A DNA stretch of 64,000 bases, taken from IMG/VR virus record IMGVR_UViG_3300007735_000801; one strand, written 5' to 3'. The notes under the pieces were generated by a model. The model saw only the letters and a list, made by a program, of their open reading frames with translations, was not told the origin of the DNA and did no database searches. The stretch is from a virus. Positions 10,997 to 63,761 of this stretch are shown here, in pieces (the stretch's first letter is position 1; every line of letters starts with the position of its first letter). The position numbers were made by a program, and so were the translations under genes.

Positions 10997-12370
10997 ATGG
11001 ATTTCAGTCAAACATCACCATACGACACTTTACTAGAAAAGTGGGAACCACTCATCAATCACGAGTCAATTCCTTCGATTCAAGACTCTTACAAGCGTAA
11101 GGTCACTGCTGTTCTCTTGGAGAATCAAGAAAACGCATTGCGTCAACAATACATCACTGAAGTTTCAGCCAATAACATGGGTGGTAACTTCTCAAACGCT
11201 CAGGTCGGATCTGCAGGCGGTCTCGCAGGTTATGATCCAATCTTGATTAGCTTGGTTCGTCGTTCCATGCCAAACTTGATGGCTTACGACATTGCAGGCG
11301 TTCAGCCAATGAGTGCTCCAACAGGACTCATCTTTGCAATGCGCAGTAAGTACGATAGTCAAACTGGTAGGGAAGCTCTCTTCCAAGAATCGTTTGCTCA
11401 GTTCGGTGGTAGTGGTAACACTTCTACTGGTGCTGCAACAATGGCAAGCCAAGGCGTTATTCCTTACGGAGCAACCGCTGGTGCTGCTGGCAACGTTAGA
11501 GGTACTACTTTTGCAATAGGTAGTTTCCGTGGCATGTTAACCTCAGATGGTGAAGCTCTTGGTGGTGCAACTAAGACTTTCAACGAAATGGCGTTCAGCA
11601 TTGAACGTATTGCTGTTGAAGCTCGTACTCGTGCTCTCAAGGCTGAATACACCACTGAATTGGCTCAAGATTTGAAGGCTGTACACGGTTTGGATGCTGA
11701 GAGTGAACTTGCTAATATTCTTAGCAGCGAAATTCTCAACGAAATCAATCGTGAATTGATGTACACCCTCTATCGTGTAGCCAAGACTGGTGCTGCTCAA
11801 GTCGATTTGACTACTGCTGGTATTTACGATCTCAACACGGATTCAGATGGTCGCTGGAGCGCAGAACGCTTCCGTGGTCTCATGTTCCAAATTGAACGTG
11901 AAGCAAATCAGATCGCCAAGGAAACTCGTCGTGGTAAGGGCAACTTTGTTGTCTGCTCCTCAGACGTAGCTTCTGCTTTGGCGATGGGTGGTTTCCTCAA
12001 CGTAAGCCCTGCACTAAACGTGCAACTCGAAGTTGATGACACTGGCAATACTTTTGCTGGTATCCTCAATGGCAAGTTCAAGGTCTACATTGATCCATAT
12101 GCTGCAACTGGTATTAACTTCTGCATGGTTGGTTATCGTGGCGCAAGCCCATACGATGCTGGCGTGTTCTACTGCCCATACGTTCCTCTCCAAATGGTAA
12201 GAGCCGTTGATCAGAATACGTTCCAACCAAAGATTGGTTTCAAGACTCGTTACGGTATGGTAGCAAATCCTTTCTCGGAAAACACAAGCATTGATGCTGT
12301 TGGACAGAATCAATACTATCGTATCTTCCGTGTAGATAACCTCCATGGTAACACAGGTTACGGTTCATAA
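10997..12370 (+). CDS. gp23: Major capsid protein gp23
   Basis: LLENQE, GVQPMSAPTGLIFAMR, RALKAEYTTELAQDLKAVHGLDAE, YCPYVPL, GFKTRYG; probable propeptide cleavage at YITE/V. Confidence 0.99.
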   Translation: MDFSQTSPYDTLLEKWEPLINHESIPSIQDSYKRKVTAVLLENQENALRQQYITEVSANNMGGNFSNAQVGSAGGLAGYDPILISLVRRSMPNLMAYDIAGVQPMSAPTGLIFAMRSKYDSQTGREALFQESFAQFGGSGNTSTGAATMASQGVIPYGATAGAAGNVRGTTFAIGSFRGMLTSDGEALGGATKTFNEMAFSIERIAVEARTRALKAEYTTELAQDLKAVHGLDAESELANILSSEILNEINRELMYTLYRVAKTGAAQVDLTTAGIYDLNTDSDGRWSAERFRGLMFQIEREANQIAKETRRGKGNFVVCSSDVASALAMGGFLNVSPALNVQLEVDDTGNTFAGILNGKFKVYIDPYAATGINFCMVGYRGASPYDAGVFYCPYVPLQMVRAVDQNTFQPKIGFKTRYGMVANPFSENTSIDAVGQNQYYRIFRVDNLHGNTGYGS

Positions 12371-25904: not shown

Positions 25905-25936
25905 ATTGTCGTATAGATAATAAGAGTGAATTTTTT

Positions 25937-26836: not shown

Positions 26837-26837
26837 A

Positions 26838-28745: not shown

Positions 28746-28746
28746 T

Positions 28747-30739: not shown

Positions 30740-30740
30740 A

Positions 30741-31762: not shown

Positions 31763-31773
31763 GAGAATTTTTT

Positions 31774-48395: not shown

Positions 48396-50321
48396 ATGCA
48401 TTTACCAACACAATTTCAACAATTCATCCACCTTTCTCGCTACAGCCGCTGGCTAGAAGAGGAGAATCGTCGTGAGACCTGGGAAGAAACTGTTAATCGT
48501 TACTTCCGTTTCTTTGATGGTCATCTAAAAGAAAATACTAAATGTAAGTTAGACAAAGCAGTAAGAGAAGAGTTACGCCAAGCAATTCTTAATCTAGAGG
48601 TCATGCCTTCCATGCGCTCCCTGATGACTGCAGGAGAAGCACTAGAGCGAGACCATACAGCAGGATACAACTGTTCGTATGTGGCAGTTAATCGAGTACG
48701 AGCATTTGACGAAATTTTATATATTTTAATGTGTGGCACAGGAGTTGGATTCTCCGTAGAAAGGCAATACGTTGAAAAATTACCAACAATTGCAGAGCAG
48801 TTTACTGATTCGGACACTACAATTATTGTACAGGATTCAAAGGCTGGTTGGGCTAAGGCTTACAAGGAATTGGTGTCCTTACTTATTGGAGGTCAAGTTC
48901 CAAAATGGGATGTCTCTAAAGTACGGGCTCATGGGGCGAGGCTTAAAACTTTTGGAGGTAGAGCCAGTGGACCTCAACCATTGGTTGATCTCTTTAGGTT
49001 CACTGTGGATACTTTTAAACGTGCCGCTGGACGCAAACTCACAAGTATCGAATGCCATGATATTGTCTGTAAGGTTGCGGAGGTTGTGGTGGTGGGAGGA
49101 GTCCGTCGATCTGCTCTTATCAGTCTATCAAACCTCACCGATGAACGTATGCGTGATGCAAAAACTGGAGCATGGTGGGAAGCCAATCCACAACGGGCAC
49201 TTGCGAATAATAGCGTAGTGTATAATGAACGACCAGAGATTGGTACCTTCATGGAGGAATGGGTTTCCCTGTATAAGAGCAAGAGTGGTGAGCGAGGTAT
49301 TTTTAATCGTGCCGCTGCTCAGAAGCAAACAGAGGGATTGGGTGATCGTCGTGATGCCACCTACGAGTTTGGAACAAATCCGTGCAGTGAAATCATTCTT
49401 CGTGACCGACAATTCTGTAATCTTACCGAGGTGGTTGTTCGTGCAGATGATACGATTGAGTCATTGACACGTAAGTGTCGTCTCGCCGCTATTCTTGGTA
49501 CATGGCAAGCGTCCCTGACTCACTTCCCATACCTGTCTAGCGAATTTACAAAAAATTGTGAAGAAGAAGCCCTATTGGGAGTGTCTCTTACAGGTATTTT
49601 AGATAATCATATTATGCGTGGTGAATCCCAAGACGATATTGCTGTGTTGCTTGCCGACCTGAAGAAGGTAGCAATAACAACAAATGCGGAATGGGCAAAG
49701 AAGTTAGGTATCAATGCAGCGGCTGCTATTACCTGCGTGAAGCCAAGCGGAACAGTGTCACAACTTGTTGACGCAGCCAGCGGTATTCATGCTCGTCACA
49801 ACGAATACTATGTTCGTACTGTTCGTGCAGATCGCAAAGATCCTCTGTGTCAAATGATGACAGATAAGGGATTTCCTGCAGAGCCTGATGTAACCAAGCC
49901 TGATCATGTTATGGTATTTTCGTTTCCTATGAAAGCGGTAGGATCAGTGACACGTAATGATATGTCTGCTCTGGATCACCTAGAGTTGTGGTTGACGTAT
50001 CAAAAGTATTGGTGTGAACATAAGCCGTCCATTACCGTAACAGTTCGTGAAGAAGAATGGATGGAAGTTGGTGCCTGGGTATATAAGCACTTTGATGAAG
50101 TTAGTGGTATCAGTTTCTTGCCACACAGCGACCATTCGTATCGTCAGGCACCATACCAAGACTGTACCAAGGAAGAATACGAAGCTCTATTGCTAAAGAT
50201 TCCTACAAATGTAGACTGGTCAGAACTCAAGAACTACGAAAAGGTAGATACAACTAGTGGCACACAAACATTTGCGTGTACTGGTGATAAGTGTGAACTA
50301 GTAGATCTAACTAGTAATTAA
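48396..50321 (+). CDS. nrdJ: Class II (adenosylcobalamin-dependent) ribonucleotide reductase
   Basis: PSMR, YNC, VVGGVRRSA, GTNPCSEI, CNL, TCVKPSGT, C-terminal CTGDKC; no nrdB adjacent. Confidence 0.92.
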   Translation: MHLPTQFQQFIHLSRYSRWLEEENRRETWEETVNRYFRFFDGHLKENTKCKLDKAVREELRQAILNLEVMPSMRSLMTAGEALERDHTAGYNCSYVAVNRVRAFDEILYILMCGTGVGFSVERQYVEKLPTIAEQFTDSDTTIIVQDSKAGWAKAYKELVSLLIGGQVPKWDVSKVRAHGARLKTFGGRASGPQPLVDLFRFTVDTFKRAAGRKLTSIECHDIVCKVAEVVVVGGVRRSALISLSNLTDERMRDAKTGAWWEANPQRALANNSVVYNERPEIGTFMEEWVSLYKSKSGERGIFNRAAAQKQTEGLGDRRDATYEFGTNPCSEIILRDRQFCNLTEVVVRADDTIESLTRKCRLAAILGTWQASLTHFPYLSSEFTKNCEEEALLGVSLTGILDNHIMRGESQDDIAVLLADLKKVAITTNAEWAKKLGINAAAAITCVKPSGTVSQLVDAASGIHARHNEYYVRTVRADRKDPLCQMMTDKGFPAEPDVTKPDHVMVFSFPMKAVGSVTRNDMSALDHLELWLTYQKYWCEHKPSITVTVREEEWMEVGAWVYKHFDEVSGISFLPHSDHSYRQAPYQDCTKEEYEALLLKIPTNVDWSELKNYEKVDTTSGTQTFACTGDKCELVDLTSN

Positions 50322-52453
50322 AAAGAAGAATCTCTTGAAGTATCTGATCTCTGATGTTGGGATTTTCTGAGAATCAGAGTATGAGCAATTGTTGACGGAT
50401 CTAATTGATTCAACGGACCATGAGTTTTTGGATCATGAGGAACCACTCCTGCAAGAGCAGGATGGAACTTTTCACCATCTTTGTTGAGTTTTTGTGAACC
50501 GTGAATCTTACCCATGCTTGACATAATGGCTTGAAGGCTTGCTTGTGCCGCAGGATTATCTGGAAATATTTGTTGTCCAACAGGCATAATCATTTGTGTC
50601 CCTTGCTCTTTGCTGCGCCTATTTCTTTGATCAAGAGATACATCAGCTTCTTGACCGCCACCTTTGTCTTGACTTTCAGGTTCACTTATTGTTCCGCCTT
50701 CAAGTGCGGAATGTATATGTTCCATGCCTTTTCTGTCTGTGCGATATGATTCAGGATTAATCAAACCCGATTGTATTGCACGTCTAACTTTATCCATGCC
50801 CCAGTGTTCTTGTTCCATTAATTTTTGTGCCAACACTTGGCGATAGTGTTCAACAATTTGCTGCTTTTCTGGAGTAAAAGATTCCCATTGATGTTCGGTA
50901 TGATATTTACCACCTGGCATTTTATCAAATCCTTGAGCAGCATCATTATCTTCAACAAACTTCTTTTCATCTGGAGACAATTGATGATAAGAAGCAGAAT
51001 TCCAGCGAACTCTCTTCAAGTCTTCTTGATTAGTTGCTGGTCGTTGAACATGGCGTTGATTCAGTTGACCAGCAGGAATACCTGGCTCAGTTATTTGAAC
51101 TGGTGTTACTCCACGAGCTGGAGGAGATGCCGCAACCTTTTCTGCACCAGATCTATCTGTAATCTGTTTTGCTGTTGAAATCAATTGTTGATCAACAGTT
51201 TGCTTCTTTGGAGATGCAGACGTTTCTGTTCCAATTTCTCGTCCAACAAAAGTGTCTGGATAATAATATTTCTTTCCTGCTGCGCCAGCTGATCCAGCTC
51301 CACCTGCCGAGCCAGCTCCACCTGCTGAGCCAACTCCACCTGCCGAGCCAACTCCACCAGATGTTCTAGAATTATTAGAATTATTATCGTCTTGTGATGG
51401 AACATAAGGAATACCTGGTGTTCCCTTTGGATAACCAAGAACTTTTGCTGCACCAGCTGCTAGTACACCAATTTCAGCAGCTGTTCTCAATAAATTGCCG
51501 TTTGGTTTTGGTGTAGTGGAACCAGGCATTTTAGTTCCTTCGATACCCTTAATAACAGGATTAGGTACAGGATCTGGCATTGGGGGCGGATACTTTGGAC
51601 CACCGTCTCCTCTTTCTTTCCATTGTGTGTCTCCTGGAGTTGGGCGAGGAACTTCAAAGCGTTCACTACCACCTGTACTAGTTCCCTCTTTTCCTGTAGC
51701 TAGAGTATTATGAGAATTAATAGGTTCTTGAGTCTTTATAACAGGAACAGCCCTTCCTTGACCTGGTCCTACTGCTAGAGGATAATTAACCTCTCCAGTC
51801 TTAGGAAATAATGGCTGAGATCTTCCTAAATTTAATAAATTATTTTTCCAATTAGGATCAAACTTATACATTGTGCCAGGATAAGAAATAGGAGACATTC
51901 GATCACCTCCAACAGTAACCTTTACTCCTGACTTGTCCACACCACCAGCAATTTCAGCAGCGGTGCGTAAATCTCTTGGGGTATTGTTAATTGTAGAAAT
52001 AGGTTCCGCTGATGCATTAGGATCAAATGGATCTGATGCCATTCGTTGTTTTGGATCTAAAGGTATACTTTGCTTGGCGACTCTAGTTCCTTTTTTGGTT
52101 AATCTTAAACCAGCTGCATCACGCATAATTTCAGTAGTTGTCTTGGGTGGTTTAGGAGAATATATCTTTCCTGTTGCAGTTGTTAGAGTAGGAGTCGCAA
52201 TTCCAGAAAATAGATCAGGTTCTACAGCCTTTGCTGCTGCTGCTGCTTCCATTTCTGCTGCTTTTGTTGCTGCTGCTGCTTCTTTTTCTATTGCCTTCTC
52301 TCCTGCCTTTAATAGATCTTTTCCTAGAAATTCCTCTCCAGCCTTTATGGCTGCTTTTATTCCTGCCTTAATTGCTCCTGCTTGTTCATTAAGATTGGTA
52401 CGATTCCAAATGGCTTTAATTAGATCGGTTTCACTGTTTACTGGTTTTTGCAT
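50318..52453 (-). CDS. Hypothetical 711-aa low-complexity protein, candidate internal virion protein
   Basis: NLNE and LME sites, Ala/Lys-rich helix, GGxGSA repeats; CCTAAATA box at 52476-52483 and AAGGA SD. Confidence 0.6.
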   Translation of the reverse strand: MQKPVNSETDLIKAIWNRTNLNEQAGAIKAGIKAAIKAGEEFLGKDLLKAGEKAIEKEAAAATKAAEMEAAAAAKAVEPDLFSGIATPTLTTATGKIYSPKPPKTTTEIMRDAAGLRLTKKGTRVAKQSIPLDPKQRMASDPFDPNASAEPISTINNTPRDLRTAAEIAGGVDKSGVKVTVGGDRMSPISYPGTMYKFDPNWKNNLLNLGRSQPLFPKTGEVNYPLAVGPGQGRAVPVIKTQEPINSHNTLATGKEGTSTGGSERFEVPRPTPGDTQWKERGDGGPKYPPPMPDPVPNPVIKGIEGTKMPGSTTPKPNGNLLRTAAEIGVLAAGAAKVLGYPKGTPGIPYVPSQDDNNSNNSRTSGGVGSAGGVGSAGGAGSAGGAGSAGAAGKKYYYPDTFVGREIGTETSASPKKQTVDQQLISTAKQITDRSGAEKVAASPPARGVTPVQITEPGIPAGQLNQRHVQRPATNQEDLKRVRWNSASYHQLSPDEKKFVEDNDAAQGFDKMPGGKYHTEHQWESFTPEKQQIVEHYRQVLAQKLMEQEHWGMDKVRRAIQSGLINPESYRTDRKGMEHIHSALEGGTISEPESQDKGGGQEADVSLDQRNRRSKEQGTQMIMPVGQQIFPDNPAAQASLQAIMSSMGKIHGSQKLNKDGEKFHPALAGVVPHDPKTHGPLNQLDPSTIAHTLILRKSQHQRSDTSRDSSF
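51287..51358 (-). repeat. 4 x 18-bp tandem repeat encoding GG(V/A)GSA
   Basis: Visible ccagctccacctgccgag-type units. Confidence 0.85.
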
Positions 52454-52516
52454 AAAGGGTTCCTTTTTTCTACTTTATTTAGGCTTTTTATACTTTGTCC
52501 GTATACATACTATTGT

Positions 52517-53281
52517 ATGAAATACCTCAGGCTTGCTGCAATAAGTTTCGCAGTAGTCTTCGTGGTGCTCCTCTTGAGGCACAAAGAAGCAAAGCCTGTA
52601 CTACCTAAAATCAATCTTCCTAGTCCAGCAACCATAGTTGATGATATCCTAGAGATAGACAGTTATCCAGGTTTCACTGTGGTAACTGATGACTGTGCAG
52701 ATACCTATAAATGTGTGGGAGAAATCTTGGTTACTGGTGGTCGCTTCATTGGCAGTGGAACATTGATTGCTCCTAAAGTAGTGGTTACTGCGGCACACGT
52801 AATTAAAGATTCTGAACTAGAGTATTTTCGAACAAACAACCAGTGCTACAAGATTAGAAAATCTGTGGCACACCCAGATTATACAGAGGAAGGAAGTGGT
52901 AAAAATGATATCGGTTTACTTTTCTTGGAGGAAGCGTGTCTAGAAACTCCTGCAGAGTTACAGACAGATCCCCAAGACCTAAAGCGAGGAGAACTGTTAA
53001 CAACAGTTGGATTCTCTCATAAAATTAAAAAAATTAGTAATGAACACACTTTCTGGTATTATGGAACAATTGTGGAGCAACCAACCTATATTCGTTTTCT
53101 TGCCTACAAAGGAAACATCTGGCTTGGTGATTCTGGTGGTGCCGTATTCGAAGACGGCGGCAAGCTGACAGGAGTAATATCTGCACTTATGATTATGGAG
53201 TACTCTGTGGTGGATCAGATTGCTGCACGAGTAGACCTGTACGTTCCTTGGATCAGACAGATGGAGAAGATCAATGAGTAG
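52517..53281 (+). CDS. Membrane-anchored/secreted trypsin-like (S1) serine protease
   Basis: N-terminal hydrophobic segment; TAAHV, NDIGL, GDSGG triad; TATACATA box 7 nt upstream. Confidence 0.9.
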   Translation: MKYLRLAAISFAVVFVVLLLRHKEAKPVLPKINLPSPATIVDDILEIDSYPGFTVVTDDCADTYKCVGEILVTGGRFIGSGTLIAPKVVVTAAHVIKDSELEYFRTNNQCYKIRKSVAHPDYTEEGSGKNDIGLLFLEEACLETPAELQTDPQDLKRGELLTTVGFSHKIKKISNEHTFWYYGTIVEQPTYIRFLAYKGNIWLGDSGGAVFEDGGKLTGVISALMIMEYSVVDQIAARVDLYVPWIRQMEKINE

Positions 53282-53354
53282 GGTTCAACGAGGTTTAGTT
53301 GCAGTCTGTAGCTTTCTAGTCGGAGTTATTCTGGCTAGAGTGCTGGGATTTTAG
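53274..53354 (+). CDS. 26-aa hydrophobic peptide (not in ORF track)
   Basis: MSRVQRGLVAVCSFLVGVILARVLGF; GGAG SD; overlaps protease stop. Confidence 0.4.
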   Translation: MSRVQRGLVAVCSFLVGVILARVLGF

Positions 53355-53834
53355 TTAGTGTGTATGTCTTTCGTAATCTTCTCTGGCAATGTTTAGTGGC
53401 TTATCGTATCTGAATGGTTTAGTAGGAATTATTAATGTTGGATCGAATATAGGATTTCTACGTGCCTCTGAGGCAACTCTAGGATCTGGGTGTTCTCCTG
53501 CTACACGAACAGTCCATAAATCATTTATTCCTCTAGGATGACGAAGACCTGCCAAAGCAACTTCAGCATCTGGATTTTTTACTGCATTACGAGTTGTCTG
53601 CCAATATGCAAAACGATGGTTTAGTGCTGCCATAACAGCTGCTGGATCTGAATGTTTTGATGCAAATGCAGTTGTTTCGTAATTTGATTCTGGATCACTT
53701 AATGCGGCTATTACAACTGCAGGATCTGAATGTTGTGCTTGAATATTTAGTTGTTCTGTGGTGGTAGAGCGACTTGGGCGATGTTCTTTTGGAGACTCTT
53801 CTGCTTCGTTTAAATATTCTAGAAAGTTTTTCAT
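53355..53834 (-). CDS. Candidate internal head protein with HEAT/LRV-like repeats
   Basis: MKNFLEYLNE N-terminus; four (H/N)(S/P)D(P/A)...A(L/R)...P repeats; TATAAATA 6 nt upstream. Confidence 0.7.
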   Translation of the reverse strand: MKNFLEYLNEAEESPKEHRPSRSTTTEQLNIQAQHSDPAVVIAALSDPESNYETTAFASKHSDPAAVMAALNHRFAYWQTTRNAVKNPDAEVALAGLRHPRGINDLWTVRVAGEHPDPRVASEARRNPIFDPTLIIPTKPFRYDKPLNIAREDYERHTH

Positions 53835-53843
53835 ATACCCTAT

Positions 53844-54458
53844 TTATACTTCACTAGTAGGAAGCATTCCCCTTGAAGATCTTTGATTATTTATTTTTCT
53901 TAATCTTTGGTCTTCATCTGATTTAATTTTATTTGTTTCTGCTTGTTGTGCAATATTTTTATTTGATTGTTGTTGCTGTTTAGTGTAATCATCTGGAGCA
54001 ATTACATTTTTAATGGAATTATAAATAACTCCTGGAGTTTCTTTTACTGCATTTATTATATTATTTCGATACTCACTCACTTTTTCAGTAGAATTAAGAG
54101 GAGTATATACCGAAGGAAAATTAACTCCCTTAGCAGTTCTGTCAGAAGCAGCTTTAAATCCTGCTTGGTTTCCTACTAATCCGCCAGATTCTTCTCTATT
54201 ATGATCAAATCTTAAACCTAAATCTGAATTTAATCTTTTTTCTGTACTCATTCTAGAATCATCTTCTCCTGGTTTTGCCATAAATCCTAGTTTACTATTA
54301 GCTAATGTCCAATAATTTGTTGTATGATCTCCACCATATAGATCTGCCATAAATCCAACATTACGGTTACCTTCTCCCCATTCAGCATCATCGGGAGTAA
54401 CAAAAAATGGACTTTTTGGTTTAGATTCTTCTCTTAAAAATTCGATAAAGCTTTTCAT
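53844..54458 (-). CDS. Candidate internal head protein
   Basis: MKSFIEFLRE N-terminus; TATAAATA 6 nt upstream. Confidence 0.65.
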   Translation of the reverse strand: MKSFIEFLREESKPKSPFFVTPDDAEWGEGNRNVGFMADLYGGDHTTNYWTLANSKLGFMAKPGEDDSRMSTEKRLNSDLGLRFDHNREESGGLVGNQAGFKAASDRTAKGVNFPSVYTPLNSTEKVSEYRNNIINAVKETPGVIYNSIKNVIAPDDYTKQQQQSNKNIAQQAETNKIKSDEDQRLRKINNQRSSRGMLPTSEV

Positions 54459-54464
54459 ATACTA

Positions 54465-54482
54465 TATTTATACTCCTAAATA
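54465..54482. promoter_or_regulatory. Back-to-back divergent late promoters
   Basis: TATAAATA on - (54465-54472) and CCTAAATA on + (54475-54482) in a 29-bp gap. Confidence 0.7.
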
Positions 54483-54487
54483 CCTAT

Positions 54488-55045
54488 GTGATTATCGCAG
54501 GTATAGATTATTCCATGACAAGTCCAAGCATCTGTGTGTTCAACTCCACAGAGCCTTTCAAGTTTCAGAGATGTTCCTTCTACTTTCTGAGCGATGTAAA
54601 GAAAAATCAAAAATTATTCCTGACCAATATTCGTGGAGATCCGTTTGATGACTGGAACTCTGATTTTGCTCGATTTGAAAGCATATCAGACTGGGCACTA
54701 CAGATGTGCATAGGATGCGACCAGATAGCCCTAGAAGGGTATGCATACGGTGCAAAGGGTAAAGTGTTTCATATTGCAGAGAACACTGGCGTTCTCAAAT
54801 ATCGTCTGCATCAACTAAGTATTCCAGTAGAAGTGATTCCTCCGAGTGCCGTAAAGAAGCAGGCTGCTGGCAAGGGCAACGCAAACAAAGAAGAGATGTA
54901 TCAGGCATTTCTAATGGAGACTGGAATAGATCTGAAGGGAACTATTAGTCCAGACAAGAAAGATGTCGGAAACCCCGTTTCCGACATCGTGGATTCTTAT
55001 TATATCTGTAAGAGTCTCTACACCAAACTTAAGAGTTTGGGTTGA
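54488..55045 (+). CDS. RuvC-like Holliday junction resolvase
   Basis: IAGIDYS, IALEGYAYG, IAENTGVLK, PSAVKK.A.GKGNA.KEEM, DIVDSY. Confidence 0.82.
   Translation: MIIAGIDYSMTSPSICVFNSTEPFKFQRCSFYFLSDVKKNQKLFLTNIRGDPFDDWNSDFARFESISDWALQMCIGCDQIALEGYAYGAKGKVFHIAENTGVLKYRLHQLSIPVEVIPPSAVKKQAAGKGNANKEEMYQAFLMETGIDLKGTISPDKKDVGNPVSDIVDSYYICKSLYTKLKSLG
54956..54988 (-). terminator. Putative terminator for the - strand operon, embedded in the resolvase gene
   Basis: Perfect 12-bp stem GATGTCGGAAAC/GTTTCCGACATC followed on - by TTTCTT. Confidence 0.55.
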
Positions 55046-55065
55046 TCTTAAAGACTTTCAGAGTA

Positions 55066-56454
55066 TTAATTATCCAAGCCGTAACGCTTAATATGAGTGT
55101 CTAAATCAGTATCGTCTGGATGGTTAGCAGACGGATCGCCGTCACGCAAATCCACAGGAATCAATTCTTTTTCTGCTTTAGAAACTAAACCATCACCATT
55201 TAGATCTTGAGCACCTGCTGGTCTACCTTTACCAAGTTTTACTCTGAAAGGATTTGCTGCACGAGCCTTGGCAAATTCTTCTGGAGAAGCACCTGCTGGT
55301 GTACCTCCACCTGGTGTATTTTCGTGCATCGGCATACGATTGCCGTTCACCCAGAGTCCTGGATTTTGTGCGTCTTGGCTTTTGGTTTGCATACTCTGGA
55401 GATGTGTCAAGAACATAGATCTGTTTGTGTTTTCTTGCATTGGAGCAGACTTTGATTTAGGTTTATCTGCCTTTGATTTATTTCTGTTGTTCCATGCTTT
55501 CATCATATCATCAACCATTTTACCTCGTTCTTCAACACTAGCATTGGGAAAACCTTTTTTTATTTGATTTGTAAAAGTAATAAGAGGTAAACCTATAGGA
55601 TGATTTTCGTTTTCTTCTTGAAGACCAGCAACAACAGCTTTTGCTGCGTTTTGATCTTGTTCGTAAGCCGAGTCTGGTGAATAGACTGGTAGACCCTGAG
55701 CCCTTCGTCGTTTTATTGCTGCTGCTCTTTGGTCTAGTTCGTCGTATGTTGAATCTTTAGCGTATTCAAGTGGATTTCTTGTGTTGGTAACAACCTTGTC
55801 TTGGTCTTGTAACTGTGCTCGTACTCTATCAGCCTTTACTGATGCATCAATTTCAGCAGAAAGTGCAGCACTTCTAGCTGCTTCTTCTGGTGTAACTTCT
55901 CTGTTGCCGTCTGCGTCAACTGGAGGAACAACAAGCTGAAGGTAATTATTTCGACCAGATTTTGGTTTAAAAAATGAACTAGTAGATGGATCTAATTTTC
56001 TGGCAAGTTCTTCTTGCATCGGTTCAGGTTGCATTGCTCCAGGAGCTCTACCACCACTAAGATTACCTCTTGCAATTTGCTTAGCCATAAGTTCTATTTC
56101 TGCATCTGCTACATTAGTTAATGGATTATAAATATCAGGATTACCATTTGGATTCATTCTAGCATCTTCTCTGTATAAGTTTTCAACATTTACTCTAGCT
56201 GGATTTCTATTACCAGAATTAGCATTCCAAACTTGCCGTGTTGTTGGGCTCATTGATCTGGCTGCTGCTCCTGTAGTGGATGCAGGTAAACCATCCAATC
56301 CATTACCCATTGGATCTATTACTTTTTCCTTATCCATATTACCTTTTCCTTCTTGGATAGGCATGCGATTGCCATTCACCCAGAGTCCTGGGTTCTGTGA
56401 GTTCTGGCTATTGGTTTGCATACTCTTTAAAAAAGATAGAAACATTGGGTTCAT
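55066..56454 (-). CDS. Hypothetical 462-aa protein with duplicated 32-aa module
   Basis: MFL..L.SMQT.SQ..QNPGLWVNGNRMP..E twice; ACTAAATA box at 56476-56483 and AAGGA SD. Confidence 0.7.
   Translation of the reverse strand: MNPMFLSFLKSMQTNSQNSQNPGLWVNGNRMPIQEGKGNMDKEKVIDPMGNGLDGLPASTTGAAARSMSPTTRQVWNANSGNRNPARVNVENLYREDARMNPNGNPDIYNPLTNVADAEIELMAKQIARGNLSGGRAPGAMQPEPMQEELARKLDPSTSSFFKPKSGRNNYLQLVVPPVDADGNREVTPEEAARSAALSAEIDASVKADRVRAQLQDQDKVVTNTRNPLEYAKDSTYDELDQRAAAIKRRRAQGLPVYSPDSAYEQDQNAAKAVVAGLQEENENHPIGLPLITFTNQIKKGFPNASVEERGKMVDDMMKAWNNRNKSKADKPKSKSAPMQENTNRSMFLTHLQSMQTKSQDAQNPGLWVNGNRMPMHENTPGGGTPAGASPEEFAKARAANPFRVKLGKGRPAGAQDLNGDGLVSKAEKELIPVDLRDGDPSANHPDDTDLDTHIKRYGLDN
55321..56445 (-). 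repeat. 96-bp direct repeat (56350-56445 and 55321-55416)
   Basis: Shared ttcacccagagtcctgg and ttggtttgcatactct blocks. Confidence 0.85.
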
Positions 56455-56486
56455 TTTATTCCTTTGGTTATACTGTATTTAGTGTT

Positions 56487-56780
56487 TTAACAATTCCACT
56501 TGCGAAGAGCCAGTGCTTTACGAGTAGGCTCTCCATTTGGTTTTTTCATGGCTCCAGGCATTCCGCCCATTCTGGCACAAAAAGATTTTCTTCTTTTTGC
56601 TGCTTTAGAGCCCTTTTTTAGTTTAGAAGGAGGTGTTGTTACTGCCGTCTGTAATTTACTTCCAGGATGTTCCCTTCGGTAAGAACGAATACCTTCAGGA
56701 TTCAAACCACCCTCAGGATTCTTTCCTTCTTTGCGTGTCCATGCCGCAGTTTCGTTTAGGTATTCTTGAAACGATTTCAT
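56487..56780 (-). CDS. Basic small protein (DUF6321-like) with capsid-targeting-like N-terminus
   Basis: MKSFQEYLNE then AWTRKEGKNPEGGLN...RRKSFCARM...ALRKWNC. Confidence 0.72.
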   Translation of the reverse strand: MKSFQEYLNETAAWTRKEGKNPEGGLNPEGIRSYRREHPGSKLQTAVTTPPSKLKKGSKAAKRRKSFCARMGGMPGAMKKPNGEPTRKALALRKWNC

Positions 56781-57475
56781 GCTGGTGTTACTTTCTTTCC
56801 AAATGCTCCGTGCATTCCTACTCTAGACTTTTCTGCCTTCTTCTTTTTTAGCTCTTCGGAAGACATCTCTCCTGTTGTCTTTGGTGTACTTTTATTTATT
56901 CTTTTGGTTGGTCTGCAGTATTCGTTTTTTCCACCTGCACCACAAGCTTTACCGCTCTTCGTGTCTTTCCACTTCTCTGCTCCCCATCGTTTAAGGTTTG
57001 CTCCACTTTTAGTTTTGCGAACATCACCCTTTGATTTACGACATTTAGCAGTTGCTTGTGCTGCTCTGGCACTCCACTTGCCGTAACTTGCCATTACCTT
57101 TCGATAACAAGCATCCCGTTCTTCGGTTAGTTTTGGTGGAATTTTTTGACCATTAAAAAATGTACTAATAATACCAGTTGGGTGTGGTTCATCTGAAACA
57201 AAATGTCTTCCTGTTATTGGGTGTTTAATAACATATTGAACTTTATTCTCACTAGATAATGTTGCATCTTTTTCTGCTGTAGCTAAATCATCTGTGGAAT
57301 TTGTTACAGGTTTATCTGTTGAAGTCTTTGTATACCCAGGCAAAGAAGTTAAATTATATCTTCTTGCTGTTGCATTACCAGAATCAGAAAGTTGCCATGC
57401 TCTGCTACCTCTTTGTAGTGCAAAACTTCTAGCAAATGATTTTTCTTCGGTTAGATATTCTTTAAAAGATTTCAT
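56777..57475 (-). CDS. Basic multi-module protein (DUF5872-like C-terminus) with capsid-targeting-like N-terminus
   Basis: MKSFKEYLTE; KLTE then DACYRKV...CRK; LKRWGAEKW...CG...CRP..R....TPKT. Confidence 0.7.
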   Translation of the reverse strand: MKSFKEYLTEEKSFARSFALQRGSRAWQLSDSGNATARRYNLTSLPGYTKTSTDKPVTNSTDDLATAEKDATLSSENKVQYVIKHPITGRHFVSDEPHPTGIISTFFNGQKIPPKLTEERDACYRKVMASYGKWSARAAQATAKCRKSKGDVRKTKSGANLKRWGAEKWKDTKSGKACGAGGKNEYCRPTKRINKSTPKTTGEMSSEELKKKKAEKSRVGMHGAFGKKVTPA

Positions 57476-57714
57476 GAATCTGCATTAATCTTTTTTCGTT
57501 TAACCAACACAGTCCATCCCCAGGCTACTGCCAAGAAGAGAACAGGAAGATACCACAAAATCCATCCCCAACCATTTCGTTGAGAAATGGTGTCTGCGTG
57601 TTGTGCCGCATTGGTGGAAATATCAGGAATGATTACAGGAGTTGTGTTGCAGGCAGTAAAAAAACAAAAAATTGTCAACGCCAATACCAAACGAGCCTTT
57701 GTGATAAGTTTCAT
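57472..57714 (-). CDS. Lipoprotein with C-terminal TM helix (spanin-like architecture)
   Basis: Signal peptide ending FTA-C; C-terminal Trp-rich TM followed by KRKK. Confidence 0.55.
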   Translation of the reverse strand: MKLITKARLVLALTIFCFFTACNTTPVIIPDISTNAAQHADTISQRNGWGWILWYLPVLFLAVAWGWTVLVKRKKINADS

Positions 57715-57723
57715 ATAATCTCC

Positions 57724-58161
57724 TTAAGATTTATTGCTGGCTGCAGCTGATCCAAAATAAAATCCTACAATTGAAAGTAAGATCTGTCGATTTTCACTAG
57801 TGAACAAATACCCATTTATTTCCACAAAGAATTTTCGTGTAGAAGAAGGAATCAAACCAAACAGTCCCTCTGGTGTGGTTGCATCAACTTCCACAAATGT
57901 TGGTGTGCCAAAGAACGGCAATATGAATGGAGCAAGTAGTGTGGCAAACAGAACTCCCAAGACAATAACTTGGCGCACAACACGTCCAGCATCCACTGAG
58001 ACACGCTGCACGGCTTTATCTTGATTCTCAGTTGTCTGCTTGTTCGCAGCCATGAGTTGATTAAACATCTCTTTTTGGTCTTGACTCTTCTGAGCCATGT
58101 AACGAAAAAGGAATCCAGTGAATCCGCCACCAATGAGTGAAATTAGTTCAGTTGGTATCAT
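57724..58161 (-). CDS. Multi-TM membrane protein, holin candidate
   Basis: Two to three hydrophobic segments, terminal ILLSIVGFYFGS; CCTAAATA box at 58177-58184 and AGGAG SD. Confidence 0.6.
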   Translation of the reverse strand: MIPTELISLIGGGFTGFLFRYMAQKSQDQKEMFNQLMAANKQTTENQDKAVQRVSVDAGRVVRQVIVLGVLFATLLAPFILPFFGTPTFVEVDATTPEGLFGLIPSSTRKFFVEINGYLFTSENRQILLSIVGFYFGSAAASNKS

Positions 58162-58708
58162 TTGATTCTCCTGTAGTATTTAGGCTATTCTTCTTTCTAC
58201 GTCCCATATATCGTCCTGCACTTTGTTGTATTCGTTTTTGAACGGAAACAGGGATTCCAAGGTCATCAGGTTTCATTCCAGCTACGCCACCTGCGGCTAC
58301 GCTATTAGCAATAGGTGCAGCTGCTCCTTCTCCGTCTTCCTGTAAAAGACCGCAAGCTCGTAATTCACGCATTGCTCCTTCCAAGAACATGGCACCATTG
58401 CCGCCAGCTTTTTCACACTCTTCTGTGAACAGAGCAAGAGCTGCAGGAACATTAGTAAGATGAGCACGAACATAAGGATCAGGAACTTTGACTAGTAGAC
58501 GTTTTAAAGAGACAATTAGTTGTTCGAATGGAGTGAACTGTTGCAGTTCTCTCTGAGACAATTCCTCAACAGATTTTAATTGTTTTCCGTTAGCGTCAAT
58601 GATACCCATACTGTAAGCTGGCATTCTGGTGAATGGAGTTGTCAGGGCATCAATGAATTTATACAGAGTAAAATTAGTAATAATTTCAGTTAATTTACTA
58701 GGCTTCAT
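58148..58708 (-). CDS. Conserved T4-like hypothetical protein
   Basis: YKFI..LTTPF...PAY..GIID..GK.LK...T.F..L...LKR pattern; LQE site followed by APIANSVAAGGVAG. Confidence 0.7.
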   Translation of the reverse strand: MKPSKLTEIITNFTLYKFIDALTTPFTRMPAYSMGIIDANGKQLKSVEELSQRELQQFTPFEQLIVSLKRLLVKVPDPYVRAHLTNVPAALALFTEECEKAGGNGAMFLEGAMRELRACGLLQEDGEGAAAPIANSVAAGGVAGMKPDDLGIPVSVQKRIQQSAGRYMGRRKKNSLNTTGESNDTN

Positions 58709-59085
58709 ACAATTTCCTTTAAAACTTTCATTATTCGATGATCTAACGGAATATCATCTATTTTAACTTCTGGTACCCTTTTAGGTAGGATTTGTAGAAA
58801 GTACAGAAATGTTTTTAGGTATGAATGATATCTGGGTTCAGTTTTAAAGAACAGAATTCGTGAACAAGCTTCAACCCCAAACACATTATTAAGTATCAGT
58901 ATATGATTGAGCAGCAAACGATCTTTGAGTGTTTTCTTTAAATCATACTTATTAAATAACCGTTTAATGTATTTAATTCTATTTAAATCATCATAGAATT
59001 CTGAAATCCCTATACAGTTGGGATTGTCATACATTTTAATGGCATAAAGAAGAAAAGTGTCTTCACTCAAAGGTTCATAAAGCAT
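58705..59085 (-). CDS. Conserved T4-like hypothetical protein
   Basis: FLLYAIKMYDNP.C....EFYDDL.RIKYIKRL...RLLLNHI.IL.NVFG. Confidence 0.75.
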   Translation of the reverse strand: MLYEPLSEDTFLLYAIKMYDNPNCIGISEFYDDLNRIKYIKRLFNKYDLKKTLKDRLLLNHILILNNVFGVEACSRILFFKTEPRYHSYLKTFLYFLQILPKRVPEVKIDDIPLDHRIMKVLKEIV

Positions 59086-59088
59086 ATT

Positions 59089-59661
59089 TTAATTTTGTCT
59101 TTGTTTAATAAATCCGTGTGTATCCAATGGAGGAGTAATTGCGCCCATAGTTTTTTGACCTTGTTCTGGGTTATCGCCACTATAGCGTACAACATCAGCA
59201 GACATCTTGTATAGACCAGATGGTGCCTCTTGAATTCCCAAAGCAATGGCTAGATGATCTCCGTCAAGAGTATCCTCAACGCCATCAGTTGTCTTGAATC
59301 CATCCTTCATCAGGTTGTGTTCTGGTGTGGTACCAAACGTGCCACCAAAGCGACTAAGCTTCAGGTATTGTGTTTGACCAACATTCAATTCAGTCTTGCC
59401 ATTAAACTCAAAATCTAAACCAGCCAAGTTGATCTTGACTCGCATCAAAGACAAAGCTGCACGAGGTTCCAGATATTCACGTCCTGTGAATGCGTTCAAG
59501 AATGCTTGAATTCTCTGAACTTGTTGGTTGTCTTCGATACGGTGAATGCCGAAGTCGCTTTGAGCAGACTGCACACTTTGTGCTGGGTATCCCCCAAGAG
59601 CTCCGCCTTCGGTATTTTCACCTTCGTTTAATTGTAATCGTAAATCTTTGTATTTTTTCAT
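59089..59661 (-). CDS. Hypothetical protein, candidate head protein
   Basis: MKKYKDLRLQLNE N-terminus; TATAAATA at 59676-59683 and AGGAG SD. Confidence 0.65.
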   Translation of the reverse strand: MKKYKDLRLQLNEGENTEGGALGGYPAQSVQSAQSDFGIHRIEDNQQVQRIQAFLNAFTGREYLEPRAALSLMRVKINLAGLDFEFNGKTELNVGQTQYLKLSRFGGTFGTTPEHNLMKDGFKTTDGVEDTLDGDHLAIALGIQEAPSGLYKMSADVVRYSGDNPEQGQKTMGAITPPLDTHGFIKQRQN

Positions 59662-59710
59662 TTTTGTCTCCTTTGTATTTATACGGAATTAATCTAATCT
59701 TTATGTGCTA

Positions 59711-60847
59711 TTACTGAAATAGTCCTGGATTGGTTGCAGCATAGGCTGTTCTTGCGTCGCCTCTTTCACGTGCAGCCTTACCTTGTGCGTTTGTAGCACC
59801 TTGAGTGCCTGGAATATTTGCAACAGTTCTACGACTAGTAACAAACTTCTTTTGTCTGGTTTGCTTATCCGCTTCTTCTCTATTTCTGGCTACGGTTTTG
59901 CGGTTTCCACCAGTTCTAGATCTCTTTGTTATTTCTTTTTCTCGCTTTTCGTGTTCAGGACCAGCATGTCGTTGTCTTTGCATACCTTTTCTCTTTTTTC
60001 TACTAAGACTTGAATAATTCTCCTGAGAGGTAAATAAATCTTTACCCTTATGTCCGTTACCACTTCTAGCGTCTATTACTTGAGCGGTAGCAATTCGATG
60101 TGCTGCTTCTTCTTTTGTGTCTCCATTTTTTAATTGAGGATTAAAGCTTTTGCTGCGCAACATAGCGTCTGCACGACGATCACGATCACTAATTTCTGCC
60201 TTTGTCATAGAAAATTCGTTATCTTTGTTAACAACTTCTTCAGTAATATTGCCAAAGAATCTAGTCTTTAGGCGATCACACAACAACAAACTAATGTCTT
60301 CATTCACAGTGCGTTTACTAATTTCAACAGCAGCTAATTGTTTTAACGCCTTTTCTTTGGTTGGATGACTGCCTAATACTCGTCCACCGCCCTCTGTTGT
60401 TACAACGTATTTATCTCCACGCTTATGAATTTCTTCCTGAATCAATTCACCATCACTATTGTCCACAATAGTATGGGCATGTTTTCTCTTTTTCTCAGGC
60501 TTATCAATAATAATTTTAACATTTTCACAAATAATTTTAACTATATTTTGCGAGTAAACGACTTTCTTTAGAAATTCTCCTTCGTAAAGAGCACAATTAC
60601 CCTTGAATTGACCAAAAGTTCCAAAAAAAGTACCTTCATCCGACTCTAATAATGCCTTTTTTCCAATTAATTTATTTAAATTTAAATCAGAAATACTATT
60701 TACGTGCTCGGTAATGTATAGGTCTGGTTTGCCTTGCGGAGTAGTGTTTCCAAGATACTTAGCCTTTATCTTATCTTTAAGCTTGTTTGTCTTGTCTTGT
60801 TGATTGCAACCACAACCTTCGCATAGATTTGATAATTTTGTATTCAT
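59711..60847 (-). CDS. Hypothetical 378-aa modular basic protein
   Basis: LCE, ITE, LLE, ICE, IQE, VNE, ITE sites; IHKRGDKYVV...LGSHPTKEKALKQLAAVE module; ACTAAATA 5 nt upstream. Confidence 0.65.
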   Translation of the reverse strand: MNTKLSNLCEGCGCNQQDKTNKLKDKIKAKYLGNTTPQGKPDLYITEHVNSISDLNLNKLIGKKALLESDEGTFFGTFGQFKGNCALYEGEFLKKVVYSQNIVKIICENVKIIIDKPEKKRKHAHTIVDNSDGELIQEEIHKRGDKYVVTTEGGGRVLGSHPTKEKALKQLAAVEISKRTVNEDISLLLCDRLKTRFFGNITEEVVNKDNEFSMTKAEISDRDRRADAMLRSKSFNPQLKNGDTKEEAAHRIATAQVIDARSGNGHKGKDLFTSQENYSSLSRKKRKGMQRQRHAGPEHEKREKEITKRSRTGGNRKTVARNREEADKQTRQKKFVTSRRTVANIPGTQGATNAQGKAARERGDARTAYAATNPGLFQ

Positions 60848-60855
60848 AAAGGTAT

Positions 60856-61482
60856 TTAGTGTTTCTGTAAACCTAGTTGTATGGCTATTAGATTACGAAT
60901 TTTTCCGATTTCTTTGACTACAAGCTCTTTGTCTATTTCTTCTGCCTTTATAGAACTACACCATTGTACCAATACAAAGCCAGTTACTTGGTTTTTAACA
61001 CTTATTGGTAGCACCATAAACGCTTCTATGTTTCGGCTTTCGAAAAATTGTTTGAAATATGAATCTTTCAGGTCCGTAGTATAGGTAATAATTGGGGTAT
61101 TATCCAGAACCAAGCTTAATAGGGGAACAAACAGGGAGCAAAGACTGCCAGTCATTTGTCCAACACAGGACCCTATACCACGAATCAGAGATTCGTGAGT
61201 AACCGAGAACTTTCTCATGGAAATACCGTCCATAAAGTACTCTCCGTTATGAAACTGTAGTATTTGTGTTCTTGCAGAATCTGTTAGGATTCTAAGTTCT
61301 GTGAGAAGTTCGTGTATTTCGCTATGAACCACAAAAAAATTATCACTCCTAAACTGGGTTTTTATCTTGGACCAGCTCTTCCTAAAACCAATCAAAACAC
61401 CAATAGCAATTGCTGTGTAAACTGCCCAATCCTCGAAAACTCGCACAAAATCTTGAGAAATATTAAAATAACCATTTAACAT
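60856..61482 (-). CDS. Single-TM + GAF-like domain protein (T4 holin T-like architecture)
   Basis: One TM (WAVYTAIAIGVLIGF) then ARTQILQFHNG...THE...IEAFMVLPI...VTGFVLVQW. Confidence 0.6.
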   Translation of the reverse strand: MLNGYFNISQDFVRVFEDWAVYTAIAIGVLIGFRKSWSKIKTQFRSDNFFVVHSEIHELLTELRILTDSARTQILQFHNGEYFMDGISMRKFSVTHESLIRGIGSCVGQMTGSLCSLFVPLLSLVLDNTPIITYTTDLKDSYFKQFFESRNIEAFMVLPISVKNQVTGFVLVQWCSSIKAEEIDKELVVKEIGKIRNLIAIQLGLQKH

Positions 61483-61487
61483 ACAAA

Positions 61488-63761
61488 TTACTTCTTTCTT
61501 AACTTCTTTTTGAATTCAGAATATGGACTGTTACAAGTCCCAACTGGATCAGTTGCTCCAGGAGTATCCTTAATAAATTTTTCTCGTAAAGCGTCTGTGC
61601 CTTCAAAACCAGCACCATGATCTTCGTGCATGGCACGATTCTTACTGGCAGACATTGGTTCTAAGTTGTTCATGCTATTATTCTGAGGATTACCGTCTTT
61701 ATGGTTTACATCTTTACCGTCACCTTTATGAACTTTGCCCTTTTTAACCATTTTACGACGTGCAAGAACTCGTTTACTTCGATTAGCACGTTGTTTAGCA
61801 GTACCCTGATAATTGTCGTATTCACGACGATAGTTTCTTTTCTTGGCTTCGGCTAAGACAAACTGCTCACTAATAATACTTAGAGCAGATGTTACGTCTA
61901 AAACACCAAGATTAACTTGTTCCACCAAATAATCATTAGTTAATAGGTATGATTCCATGAGAGAATCTGCACCACGCTCAATGATATCTTCCACATCTCC
62001 CTCTTGATCAAAATTATATTTTACTGGAATAGAAATTTGTTTTTCGCTGGCAGTACCAGAATCAATGGTAATTGTATTACTGGTATCTGAATCACCAGTG
62101 TAGTAGTTTGCGTATACTAACGGTCTTCGAAATACTGCGTCAACCAATTCAATTTCAAATGCTTGCATAAATGCTTGCGGATTAGATATTTGATCTTTCA
62201 TCTTTTCAATATCAATCACAACATCCAGAGCAGATTCGTTTATCTGATTTATTTTCTGCATGAGAGATTGCAGGAATCCTCCACTAGAATCTGGCTTTGC
62301 CTGAAACTTTAAACGCATTTCTGAATCATCAGACTCAGCAAAACCATTAATAAATTCTGGATTTAATGGAATTATTTTTGCATCTGTACCATCTTTATTT
62401 GCAGACAACATTACTTGAGCAGATCCAGCTTGTCCTTCGAATTTACTGTTTCCTGTAATAGCTTCTTGAAGAAATGCAGTTTTTAAAGCAAAATTTTGAT
62501 TAAGATAATCTTCAATTAAATCACCAGCTTTACTGATTAAAGATTGTTGTCTGTTAGAAATAAATTCTTGTTGGCTTCTTTGTTTGGACAGTAACAATGC
62601 ACCTTGTTGTGTCATTGTAGATTGATTTGATTGAATATTATTTTTTGAAAAATCTTGTCTAAGATCTTGAACAAAATCTGTTAGCATTAAACCAAAAGAT
62701 TGCGTTAATTCTGCAGGATCAATAGCAGAAAGAGCAGAAATTAAAATCATTCCTGCTTCTCCCTTTAATCCAGGACGAATCTGTTCGCCAATTTTAACAG
62801 AAACTCCCATAGAACTATTTTCAGAAATACCAATCAATTCTACATTTGGCATTGATTCTGGTATTCCCATACTAGCCCATAATTGTCCAGTAGGATATTG
62901 TGGTTCTGCTGGACTGAATGTCATGCTGGCAGCTTCAGGAAAAGTTTTTGAAATTTCCTTAACAATGCGATTAATAGAATCGCCAAGTGTTCTGCTATTA
63001 TCCATAGCCTGTTGAAATTCTAGAGAAGGTTGTTGACCAGATAAACTATTCAAAGCATCGGGTAGCACTGAACTAATCTGAGCCACGTTGTGATCCCAAT
63101 CAGGATAAGTGGAAAACTCATCAGTAATTTCTTTACCATTCTTTGGTGCTCTTATTTGTGGTGGCGGTGGGGCTTGATTTTTGCCAGAAGATTCTTCTTT
63201 TTCGTTGCCAGCTTTTTCAATTTTACCTATTAATTTAATTGAAGTTTTAGTGTTGATAAAATTATCTTGACCAGAGTAATAAGTTAAATCACGACGACTA
63301 ACATTACCCTTATCATTTTTAGGAAGTTTACCCTTAACTAGAGTGTGAATATTTTTATCAAAATCACTACGTAAAATAATTTCTACTTTATTACTGTTAT
63401 TATTCTTAACAATAATAATTTGACTCATGATATCTGTCTGACCATCCTGACGACGACTTTCTCTTTTACGATCTCGTTCACGATTGGCGGGATTAACTTC
63501 TGGTCGCATCTTTTGCTTGTCACGCTTTAGGGGAGTTCTTTTGGATTCTGCTTCAAATAGTGATTGTATGAAATTTTCTTGTAGTTCGTTAGTTTTGTGT
63601 TTAAACATGGATGGACTCGATTCTTCTGTATTTTTTACATGAAATGGTTGTTGACGAAGCCATTCAAGCTCGTATTCTTTCGTAAAAAGAATGGCAGATT
63701 CTGTTAAAAAATCTGTATATTCTGCACGTTTAAACCAAGATGGGGTGTTATTAATAGGCAC
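61488..63761 (-). CDS. 757-aa multidomain protein with C-terminal HNH module
   Basis: GKDVNHKDGNPQNNSMNNL...SKNR; many LxE sites; CCTAAATA 5 nt before GTG. Confidence 0.7.
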   Translation of the reverse strand: MPINNTPSWFKRAEYTDFLTESAILFTKEYELEWLRQQPFHVKNTEESSPSMFKHKTNELQENFIQSLFEAESKRTPLKRDKQKMRPEVNPANRERDRKRESRRQDGQTDIMSQIIIVKNNNSNKVEIILRSDFDKNIHTLVKGKLPKNDKGNVSRRDLTYYSGQDNFINTKTSIKLIGKIEKAGNEKEESSGKNQAPPPPQIRAPKNGKEITDEFSTYPDWDHNVAQISSVLPDALNSLSGQQPSLEFQQAMDNSRTLGDSINRIVKEISKTFPEAASMTFSPAEPQYPTGQLWASMGIPESMPNVELIGISENSSMGVSVKIGEQIRPGLKGEAGMILISALSAIDPAELTQSFGLMLTDFVQDLRQDFSKNNIQSNQSTMTQQGALLLSKQRSQQEFISNRQQSLISKAGDLIEDYLNQNFALKTAFLQEAITGNSKFEGQAGSAQVMLSANKDGTDAKIIPLNPEFINGFAESDDSEMRLKFQAKPDSSGGFLQSLMQKINQINESALDVVIDIEKMKDQISNPQAFMQAFEIELVDAVFRRPLVYANYYTGDSDTSNTITIDSGTASEKQISIPVKYNFDQEGDVEDIIERGADSLMESYLLTNDYLVEQVNLGVLDVTSALSIISEQFVLAEAKKRNYRREYDNYQGTAKQRANRSKRVLARRKMVKKGKVHKGDGKDVNHKDGNPQNNSMNNLEPMSASKNRAMHEDHGAGFEGTDALREKFIKDTPGATDPVGTCNSPYSEFKKKLRKK

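Follow-up and report, generated by a model that had tools for sequence, protein, structure and literature searches.

We analysed a 64,000-nucleotide (nt) stretch of viral DNA (IMG/VR record IMGVR_UViG_3300007735_000801; hereafter, the window), which contains, within a ~13-kb block of genes at 50318-63761, four genes whose products begin with nearly the same 10 residues (hereafter, the tag). The peptide is probably a capsid-targeting and processing tag of the T4 type, portable across unrelated payloads. In the six-frame translation of the window the pattern MKx[FYW]x[DE][FYW][LIVM]xE has exactly four matches, all of which are starts of minus-strand open reading frames (ORFs), at 53834 (159 amino acids, aa), 54458 (204 aa), 56780 (97 aa) and 57475 (232 aa). 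The four payloads behind the tag fall into separate BLAST clusters without mutual BLAST similarity, which agrees with a preliminary description of this DNA, made by a model from the letters, that four otherwise unrelated ORFs share a 10-residue start.

Synonymous codons vary among the tag copies (Ser AGC/TCG/TCT, Tyr TAT/TAC, Leu TTA/CTA), and the conservation therefore points to selection at the level of the peptide. The aromatic residues at positions 4 and 7 (F4, Y/F7), L8 and E10 are kept in all four tags. In T4, mutational mapping of the IPIII leader assigned targeting mainly to residues 4 and 7 and processing to residues 8 and 10 (PMC9026906). As a positive control, the degenerate DNA pattern that was used on the relatives of the window phage was applied to T4, where it gave three sites: ipII and ipIII, which do begin with the 10-mer quoted for them in the preliminary description, and ORF 61.1.

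The second half of the tag recurs elsewhere in the window. The context [DEQ][FY][LI][TNRK]E was found at nine sites in the 72 predicted proteins, compared with 0.7 expected from 300 shuffles, among which the maximum was three. These sites are the four tags and those in the major capsid protein gp23, the N-terminus of the prohead protease, a small core-like protein, the leader of a 757-aa protein and the portal, and seven of the nine lie within the first 30 residues. In gp23, the YITE/V site that had been noted earlier is present at residues 51-55, between the conserved N-terminal helix and the body, and the counterpart region of T4 gp23 has SFLTE then A, with the exact column alignment of the two being ambiguous. 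The protease itself, which belongs to the gp21-type S77 family and is the presumed processing enzyme of the tagged proteins, has EFLTE then A at its N-terminus, and the 133-aa core-like protein contains an internal KEYLNE that is identical to the tag core. Since gp23, the protease and the small core-like ORF are counterparts of T4 gp21 substrates, their common context is the best evidence from within the genome for an S77 cleavage site at the end of the tag.

Table 1 Positions in the window of the head-gene module, the tagged and longer-leader genes, and the late-promoter boxes.
Feature	Position	Strand	Remarks
Portal	5461-7059		One internal [DEQ][FY][LI][TNRK]E site
Small core-like protein, 133 aa	7056..7457	+	gp67/gp68 position, between portal and protease
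Second small ORF	7469-7861		gp67/gp68 position
gp21-type prohead protease, Peptidase_S77	7865..8512	+	PF03420, 126 bits; phrog_207
T4_CASP scaffold	10041-10958		PF25623, 197 bits
gp23 major capsid protein	10997..12370	+	QYITE then V, residues 50-55, N-terminal propeptide region
711-aa protein	50318..52453	-	Conserved ~23-residue leader ending LNE (LLE in relatives); hypervariable low-complexity body
Tagged gene 1, 159 aa	53355..53834	-	10-residue tag, ~12-residue linker, predicted alpha-solenoid (HEAT/LRV-like repeats)
TATAAATA box	53841..53848	-	T4 late-promoter consensus, upstream of tagged gene 1
Tagged gene 2, 204 aa	53844..54458	-	Near-orphan payload
TATAAATA box	54465..54472	-	Upstream of tagged gene 2
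462-aa protein	55066..56454	-	Conserved 35-residue leader ending IQE; hypervariable body
Tagged gene 3, 97 aa	56487..56780	-	Tag and DUF6321; basic, isoelectric point (pI) 10.6
Tagged gene 4, 232 aa	56777..57475	-	Tag, ~105-aa insert without family, second LTE-E site, DUF5872; pI 10.0
190-aa conserved protein	59089..59661	-	13-residue leader ending LNE
TATAAATA box	59676..59683	-	22 nt upstream of the 190-aa gene
757-aa protein	61488..63761	-	GTG start, 21-residue leader ending FLTE then S

The tagged payloads are diverse. The AlphaFold2 model of the 159-aa protein (predicted local distance difference test, pLDDT, 81) is an alpha-solenoid in which the tag forms its own helix (residues 4-12) ahead of a low-confidence linker, and the tag is invariant among the 12 homologues of this protein. 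Its repeats match a tagged 2120-aa protein of another IMG/VR contig. No Pfam match was obtained even at E = 1 and none in PHROGs, and Foldseek against the PDB returned only weak, generic repeat proteins (designed repeats, ankyrin, armadillo; E of at least 0.05). The 204-aa payload is probably disordered, because only two homologues were found and its Atlas model is of very low confidence (pLDDT 0.42); neither Pfam nor PHROGs gave a match for it.

The other two tagged proteins carry small basic domains. DUF6321 (PF19846) covers residues 19-95 of the 97-aa protein (78.9 bits; Pfam gathering cut-off, 28.5), whose AlphaFold2 model (pLDDT 79) had no specific fold match (Foldseek against the PDB, best E = 2.4; VIA-align wide, best Z = 3.6). 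Across its 3161 cluster representatives DUF6321 is mostly a highly conserved C-terminal module on very variable proteins, and 62 of 150 sampled representatives (~40%) start with a 9- or 10-residue leader ending [ILV]xE. Many DUF6321 proteins are chains of small basic Cys-containing modules (CWxGY-type, CPHCGG-type, DUF5872-like) that follow a 9-residue leader of the form M[KR]xx[DE][FIV][IL]xE, and the DUF6321 protein encoded by gene 194 of P-SSM7 has a near-T4 leader at its start. In the 232-aa protein, DUF5872 (PF19197) covers residues 137-218 (46.1 bits; Pfam cut-off, 27.5), and a PDB sequence search with the whole protein gave chance-level rows only. Our literature search on DUF6321 and DUF5872 returned only passing mentions in giant-virus papers.

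The helical repeats and the basic Cys-containing domains of the preliminary description thus correspond to the solenoid model and to DUF6321 and DUF5872. The structure prediction and Foldseek comparison that it had proposed yielded the solenoid, with otherwise generic or no fold matches. PADLOC found no defence or anti-defence family among nine block proteins and the payload of one relative (L003, see below), and the fold searches of the payload models gave no match that would suggest a target. The description of the payloads as injected effectors or anti-defence proteins was over-stated and has no direct support.

In two further genes of the block, a longer leader terminates in a site like that of the tag. 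The start of the 190-aa protein at 59661, which had been singled out as a fifth similar case, is real and conserved, as 88 of its 107 homologues begin with MKx[YF]KxL[KR]xxLxE; tblastn against cultured phages found no match to this protein, nor did searches of Pfam and PHROGs. The 757-aa protein, which the preliminary description had overlooked, has EYxxFLTE then S at residues 14-22, and its GTG start and leader are kept in a relative (G001, see below) in which the gene is ~70% identical at the nucleotide level. An HNH_3-like motif at the Pfam cut-off (24.9 bits) lies towards the C-terminus of the 757-aa protein (residues ~660-716). In three large ORFs, of 711, 462 and 378 aa, a conserved N-terminal leader precedes a hypervariable body; these may encode further cargo with other leaders. 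Among relatives, the body of the 711-aa protein ranges from 425 to 784 aa behind the conserved leader, and the 462-aa gene product from 79 to 462 aa. The 462-aa leader is present twice, at residues 1-35 and near residue 345, with both copies ending x-E. The 711- and 462-aa proteins had no Pfam or PHROGs matches.

In general, the tagged genes appear to be under late control. A TATAAATA box lies 14-22 nt upstream of the starts at 53834, 54458 and 59661, likewise ahead of gp22 and the tail genes, and the tagged genes of the relative G001 have the same kind of box upstream, which suggests that the tagged genes are late-transcribed. That most of the starts follow late-promoter boxes, as the preliminary description had it, holds for these three; the starts at 56780 and 57475 lack such a box, and as both genes overlap the ones upstream of them they are likely co-transcribed, with the box at 59676..59683 probably serving an operon that extends down to 56487 and includes both. 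At 53834 and 54458 the boxes end 6 nt before the ATG, without a Shine-Dalgarno sequence (53835-53848 and 54459-54472), and given this spacing the late mRNAs of the two genes are perhaps nearly leaderless.

To follow the tagged genes among relatives, we compared the window with three IMG/VR contigs (L001, L002 and L003) and with the longer genome G001 (153,850 bp, 85% complete). Synteny with G001 holds at 77-93% nucleotide identity outside variable islands. At 54458, L003 is ~96% identical from a RuvC-like gene via the promoter box to codon 11, where the homology ends (nt 54426, within the 204-aa gene). Where the window has its two tagged genes, the same leader in L003 is followed by a 323-aa payload, and L001 has no gene. 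At 57475, identity with L001, L002 and L003 again ends at codon 11, and DUF5872 follows the tag immediately in L001 and L003. The 105-residue insert of the window gene is flanked by a 12-nt direct repeat encoding LTEE, and there is therefore a second cleavage-type site ahead of DUF5872. Since homology among the relatives ends at codon 11, the promoter and tag form a fixed socket behind which the payloads are exchanged by recombination. Near its left end, G001 has a second cluster of four tagged genes, the per-genome count of tags being based on this relative only.

We further profiled the occurrence of the tag in IMG/VR. An exact tag-coding pattern, in one codon version, was found on more than 119 contigs among the matches listed, compared with a chance expectation that we roughly estimate at well under one. 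A backwards-read control pattern had no match in the genomes and contigs on which it was scanned, namely G001, the 25 largest tag-bearing contigs and five cultured phage genomes. Loose matches were at ORF starts in 132 of 141 cases among those listed, and with duplicates removed and the window and G001 genes added, the matches listed gave 132 distinct tagged ORFs in 35 payload clusters. The combination of a conserved leader and exchanged payloads that characterizes a T4-type internal-protein system is thus seen in both the codon-11 breakpoints and these clusters. The S77 protease was found in 12 of the 25 largest tag-bearing contigs, all of which are fragments, and in eight of the ten longest (at least 88.6 kb).

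The dominant tagged cluster among the matches listed is formed by a ~200-aa protein with a match to phrog_14802 ('virion structural protein') and with homology to gp202 of PA5oct, annotated as structural by electrospray ionization tandem mass spectrometry (ESI-MS/MS), and to gp557 of 121Q. This family was rejected as a component of the window phage, as it is absent from the window and G001, with which it has the tag alone in common. Jumbo-phage contigs were likewise rejected as tag arsenals, having one exact tag each; multi-tag sets were limited to the lineage of the window and a few other contigs. Elsewhere in IMG/VR the same tag was seen on a lysozyme-domain protein (L083, 6257), a cytidylyltransferase-like protein (L035, 7073), an NTP_transf_2-like protein with a weak match (L131, 1178-2107), the 2120-aa solenoid (L008, 2950-9312) and the 323-aa protein without family (L003, 5536-6507).

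Not all of the block belongs to this system. The preliminary description had read the ~13 kb as one expanded cargo cassette; its portable T4-type tag with a gp21-type protease stands, and the extension to the whole block was rejected, as the strict tag is on four of ~16 genes, or six of ~16 when the two longer-leader ORFs are included. The rest of the block comprises a RuvC-like resolvase, a trypsin-fold protease on the other strand, membrane proteins, DUF7207 and other conserved ORFs. The trypsin-fold serine protease (PF00089; 52517-53281, plus strand) has an N-terminal membrane anchor or signal, and its gene is 90-93% identical at the nucleotide level in all relatives, located between variable tagged cassettes. 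An 80-aa protein (57472-57714, minus strand) has an N-terminal lipobox (Cys22) and a C-terminal transmembrane helix, the layout of a unimolecular spanin, and adjoins a 145-aa membrane protein (57724-58161, minus strand; phrog_38283). These two genes inside the block are probably lysis genes.

The window as a whole contains a T4-type set of morphogenesis and replication genes. By these sequence criteria the source phage is an uncultured T4-like myovirus distant from T4, classed so because its gp23 is ~57% identical to cyanomyovirus gp23 (the nearest cultured sequences) and the 13-kb block had no megablast match to cultured phages. The protease and scaffold module is also matched by phrog_207 and phrog_237. 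Between the protease and scaffold genes there is an additional head-module gene that is absent from T4, a 484-aa basic ORF (8509-9963, plus strand) for which no family match was found. A low-GC (30-33%) ORF stretch at 24000-34000, between replication and tail genes, is maybe a laterally acquired island; we assume, without a family search, that it holds sugar-modification or glycosyltransferase-like genes.

The best overall explanation, to which we assign a probability of about 0.7, is that the tag corresponds to the T4 capsid targeting sequence (CTS) on four late genes, whose products would be packaged in the head as cargo and trimmed by the protease. By analogy with T4, we infer targeting, cleavage, retention in the head and injection along the following lines. 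The leader would fold into a short helix, aromatic at positions 4 and 7, that binds the scaffolding core during prohead assembly, so that the tagged protein is built into the prohead. The S77 protease would then cut after Glu10 in the context [EQD]-[FY]-[LI]-x-E, and likewise at the end of the longer leaders of the 190- and 757-aa proteins, and the freed payload would remain beside the DNA inside the head. Of these payloads, the basic modules DUF6321 and DUF5872 would probably ride on the DNA. Candidates for entering the host together with it are the alpha-solenoid and the disordered protein. Promoter and tag would act as the fixed socket, with payloads being swapped behind it by recombination.

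Several findings weigh against this explanation. The exact tag pattern also starts T4 gp61.1, a 54-aa, functionally uncharacterized ORF of an early region (NC_000866, 18966-19130, beside the primase gene) with a CTS-like 10-mer at its start, and the motif by itself is therefore no proof of packaging. An exact match to the tag pattern was not found in the cultured relatives S-SSM7, S-PM2, Syn9 and HTVC008M, and the tag is therefore not shared by all T4-like marine phages. PA5oct gp202 does not have the L-x-E end. In addition, the family and fold searches found no payload resembling a known internal protein, anti-defence protein or DNA-binding fold.

An unlikely alternative is that the tag does target the prohead core and is cleaved, but that the payloads are accessories of the core or scaffold which act in assembly only and are degraded or expelled before DNA packaging, like gp22, gp67 and gp68 of T4. 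That the small core-like protein (7056-7457) and the protease share the site context of the tag, that the 204-aa payload is predicted to be disordered and that the 232-aa protein has a second internal site would all fit such a role. T4 scaffold proteins, however, are cut many times, and gp22 of the window phage has 11 [LI]xE sites, whereas the solenoid, DUF6321 and DUF5872 modules have only one or two; hypervariable, exchangeable payloads also suit host-directed cargo better than an assembly machine.

It is more improbable still that the common start is a recombination or expression cassette, consisting of promoter, start codon and the first 30 nt, which is kept for good late expression and encodes a peptide without a sorting role. 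The homology breakpoints exactly at the end of the tag are what such a cassette would leave, and where a box ends 6 nt ahead of the ATG, as in two genes, the opening codons could influence the translation of a near-leaderless mRNA. Yet the peptide is kept despite synonymous differences among the copies, the tagged genes at 56780 and 57475 lack a promoter box, the peptide fits the experimentally mapped T4 CTS at all functional positions, and the same five-residue context is present in gp23 and near the protease N-terminus. A reading of the tag by other machinery, for example the trypsin-fold protease at 52517-53281, an export route or a modifying enzyme, with the capsid not involved, seems very improbable. 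The conserved position of that protease gene between variable cassettes in all relatives is in line with such a link, but its N-terminal membrane anchor or signal indicates that the enzyme probably acts outside the cytoplasm, and the tag is hydrophilic and not a signal peptide. The S77 protease, moreover, is often encoded on tag-bearing contigs (the co-occurrence with the trypsin-like gene was not counted).

Returning to head-packaged cargo, we can only tentatively extend this reading to a general capture socket, in which any ORF that comes to lie behind codon 11 becomes cargo, cleavage sites chain modules together, a fast-changing set of proteins is delivered, and DUF6321 is a widespread DNA-riding cargo of aquatic phages. 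On that doubtful extension, the delivered set of the relatives would include the 2120-aa solenoid, the lysozyme and the nucleotidyltransferase-like enzymes. If the tag works as in T4, virion cargo becomes predictable from sequence alone in uncultured aquatic T4-like phages. The result would be a list of proteins that reach the host at DNA entry, as candidate counter-defence, takeover or DNA-packing factors, including the very abundant, functionally uncharacterized domains DUF6321 and DUF5872. The near-identity of the tag in T4 and a distant phage suggests that T4-type head assembly has long relied on this sorting signal and conserved it, and that T4-based protein-packaging tools may be transferable to other hosts. 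The acquisition of new cargo is exemplified by the codon-11 breakpoints.

Among known systems, the giant phages SPN3US and phiKZ use a prohead protease of a different lineage, which cuts after (S/A/G)-x-E, and we know of no common 10-residue leader among their ejection proteins. These phages have propeptide-bearing ejection proteins, and many of their head proteins are processed by the prohead protease and delivered with the DNA (PMC5694885, PMC7411985), a likeness that for the window phage is proposed only. The family of phrog_14802, PA5oct gp202 and 121Q gp557, whose members are annotated as virion proteins, shares only the tag with the window phage. In the T-even phages, CTS-like leaders are described on variable basic proteins (Repoila et al. 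1994, as cited in PMC9026906). These have in common with the window lineage a conserved leader, variable cargo and a plastic locus; breakpoints at the leader boundary were observed in the window lineage. They are from close enterobacterial relatives of T4, whereas the tag described here is from an uncultured aquatic lineage and jumbo-phage contigs.

The closest parallel is with the T4 internal proteins. According to review accounts, IPII and IPIII, and also IPI and Alt, have a CTS that the gp21 prohead protease cuts off (Mullaney & Black 1996, reviewed in PMC9026906 and PMC3012670). The window proteins resemble IPII and IPIII in the 10-residue leader with Met-Lys, an aromatic residue at 4, Glu at 6, an aromatic residue at 7, an aliphatic residue at 8 and Glu at 10. 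The S77 protease gene, the gp23 site context, the TATAAATA late boxes, and the conserved leader on unrelated payloads at a hypervariable locus are alike as well. They differ in that the payloads are not homologous to IPI, IPII, IPIII or Alt, that there are more tagged genes (four in the window and four more in the second G001 cluster), and that one window gene apparently encodes two chained modules with an internal site; the system here is known from sequence alone. The proposed mechanism has its precedent in T4; what is new is the lineage, how many of its genes are tagged, and the cargo.

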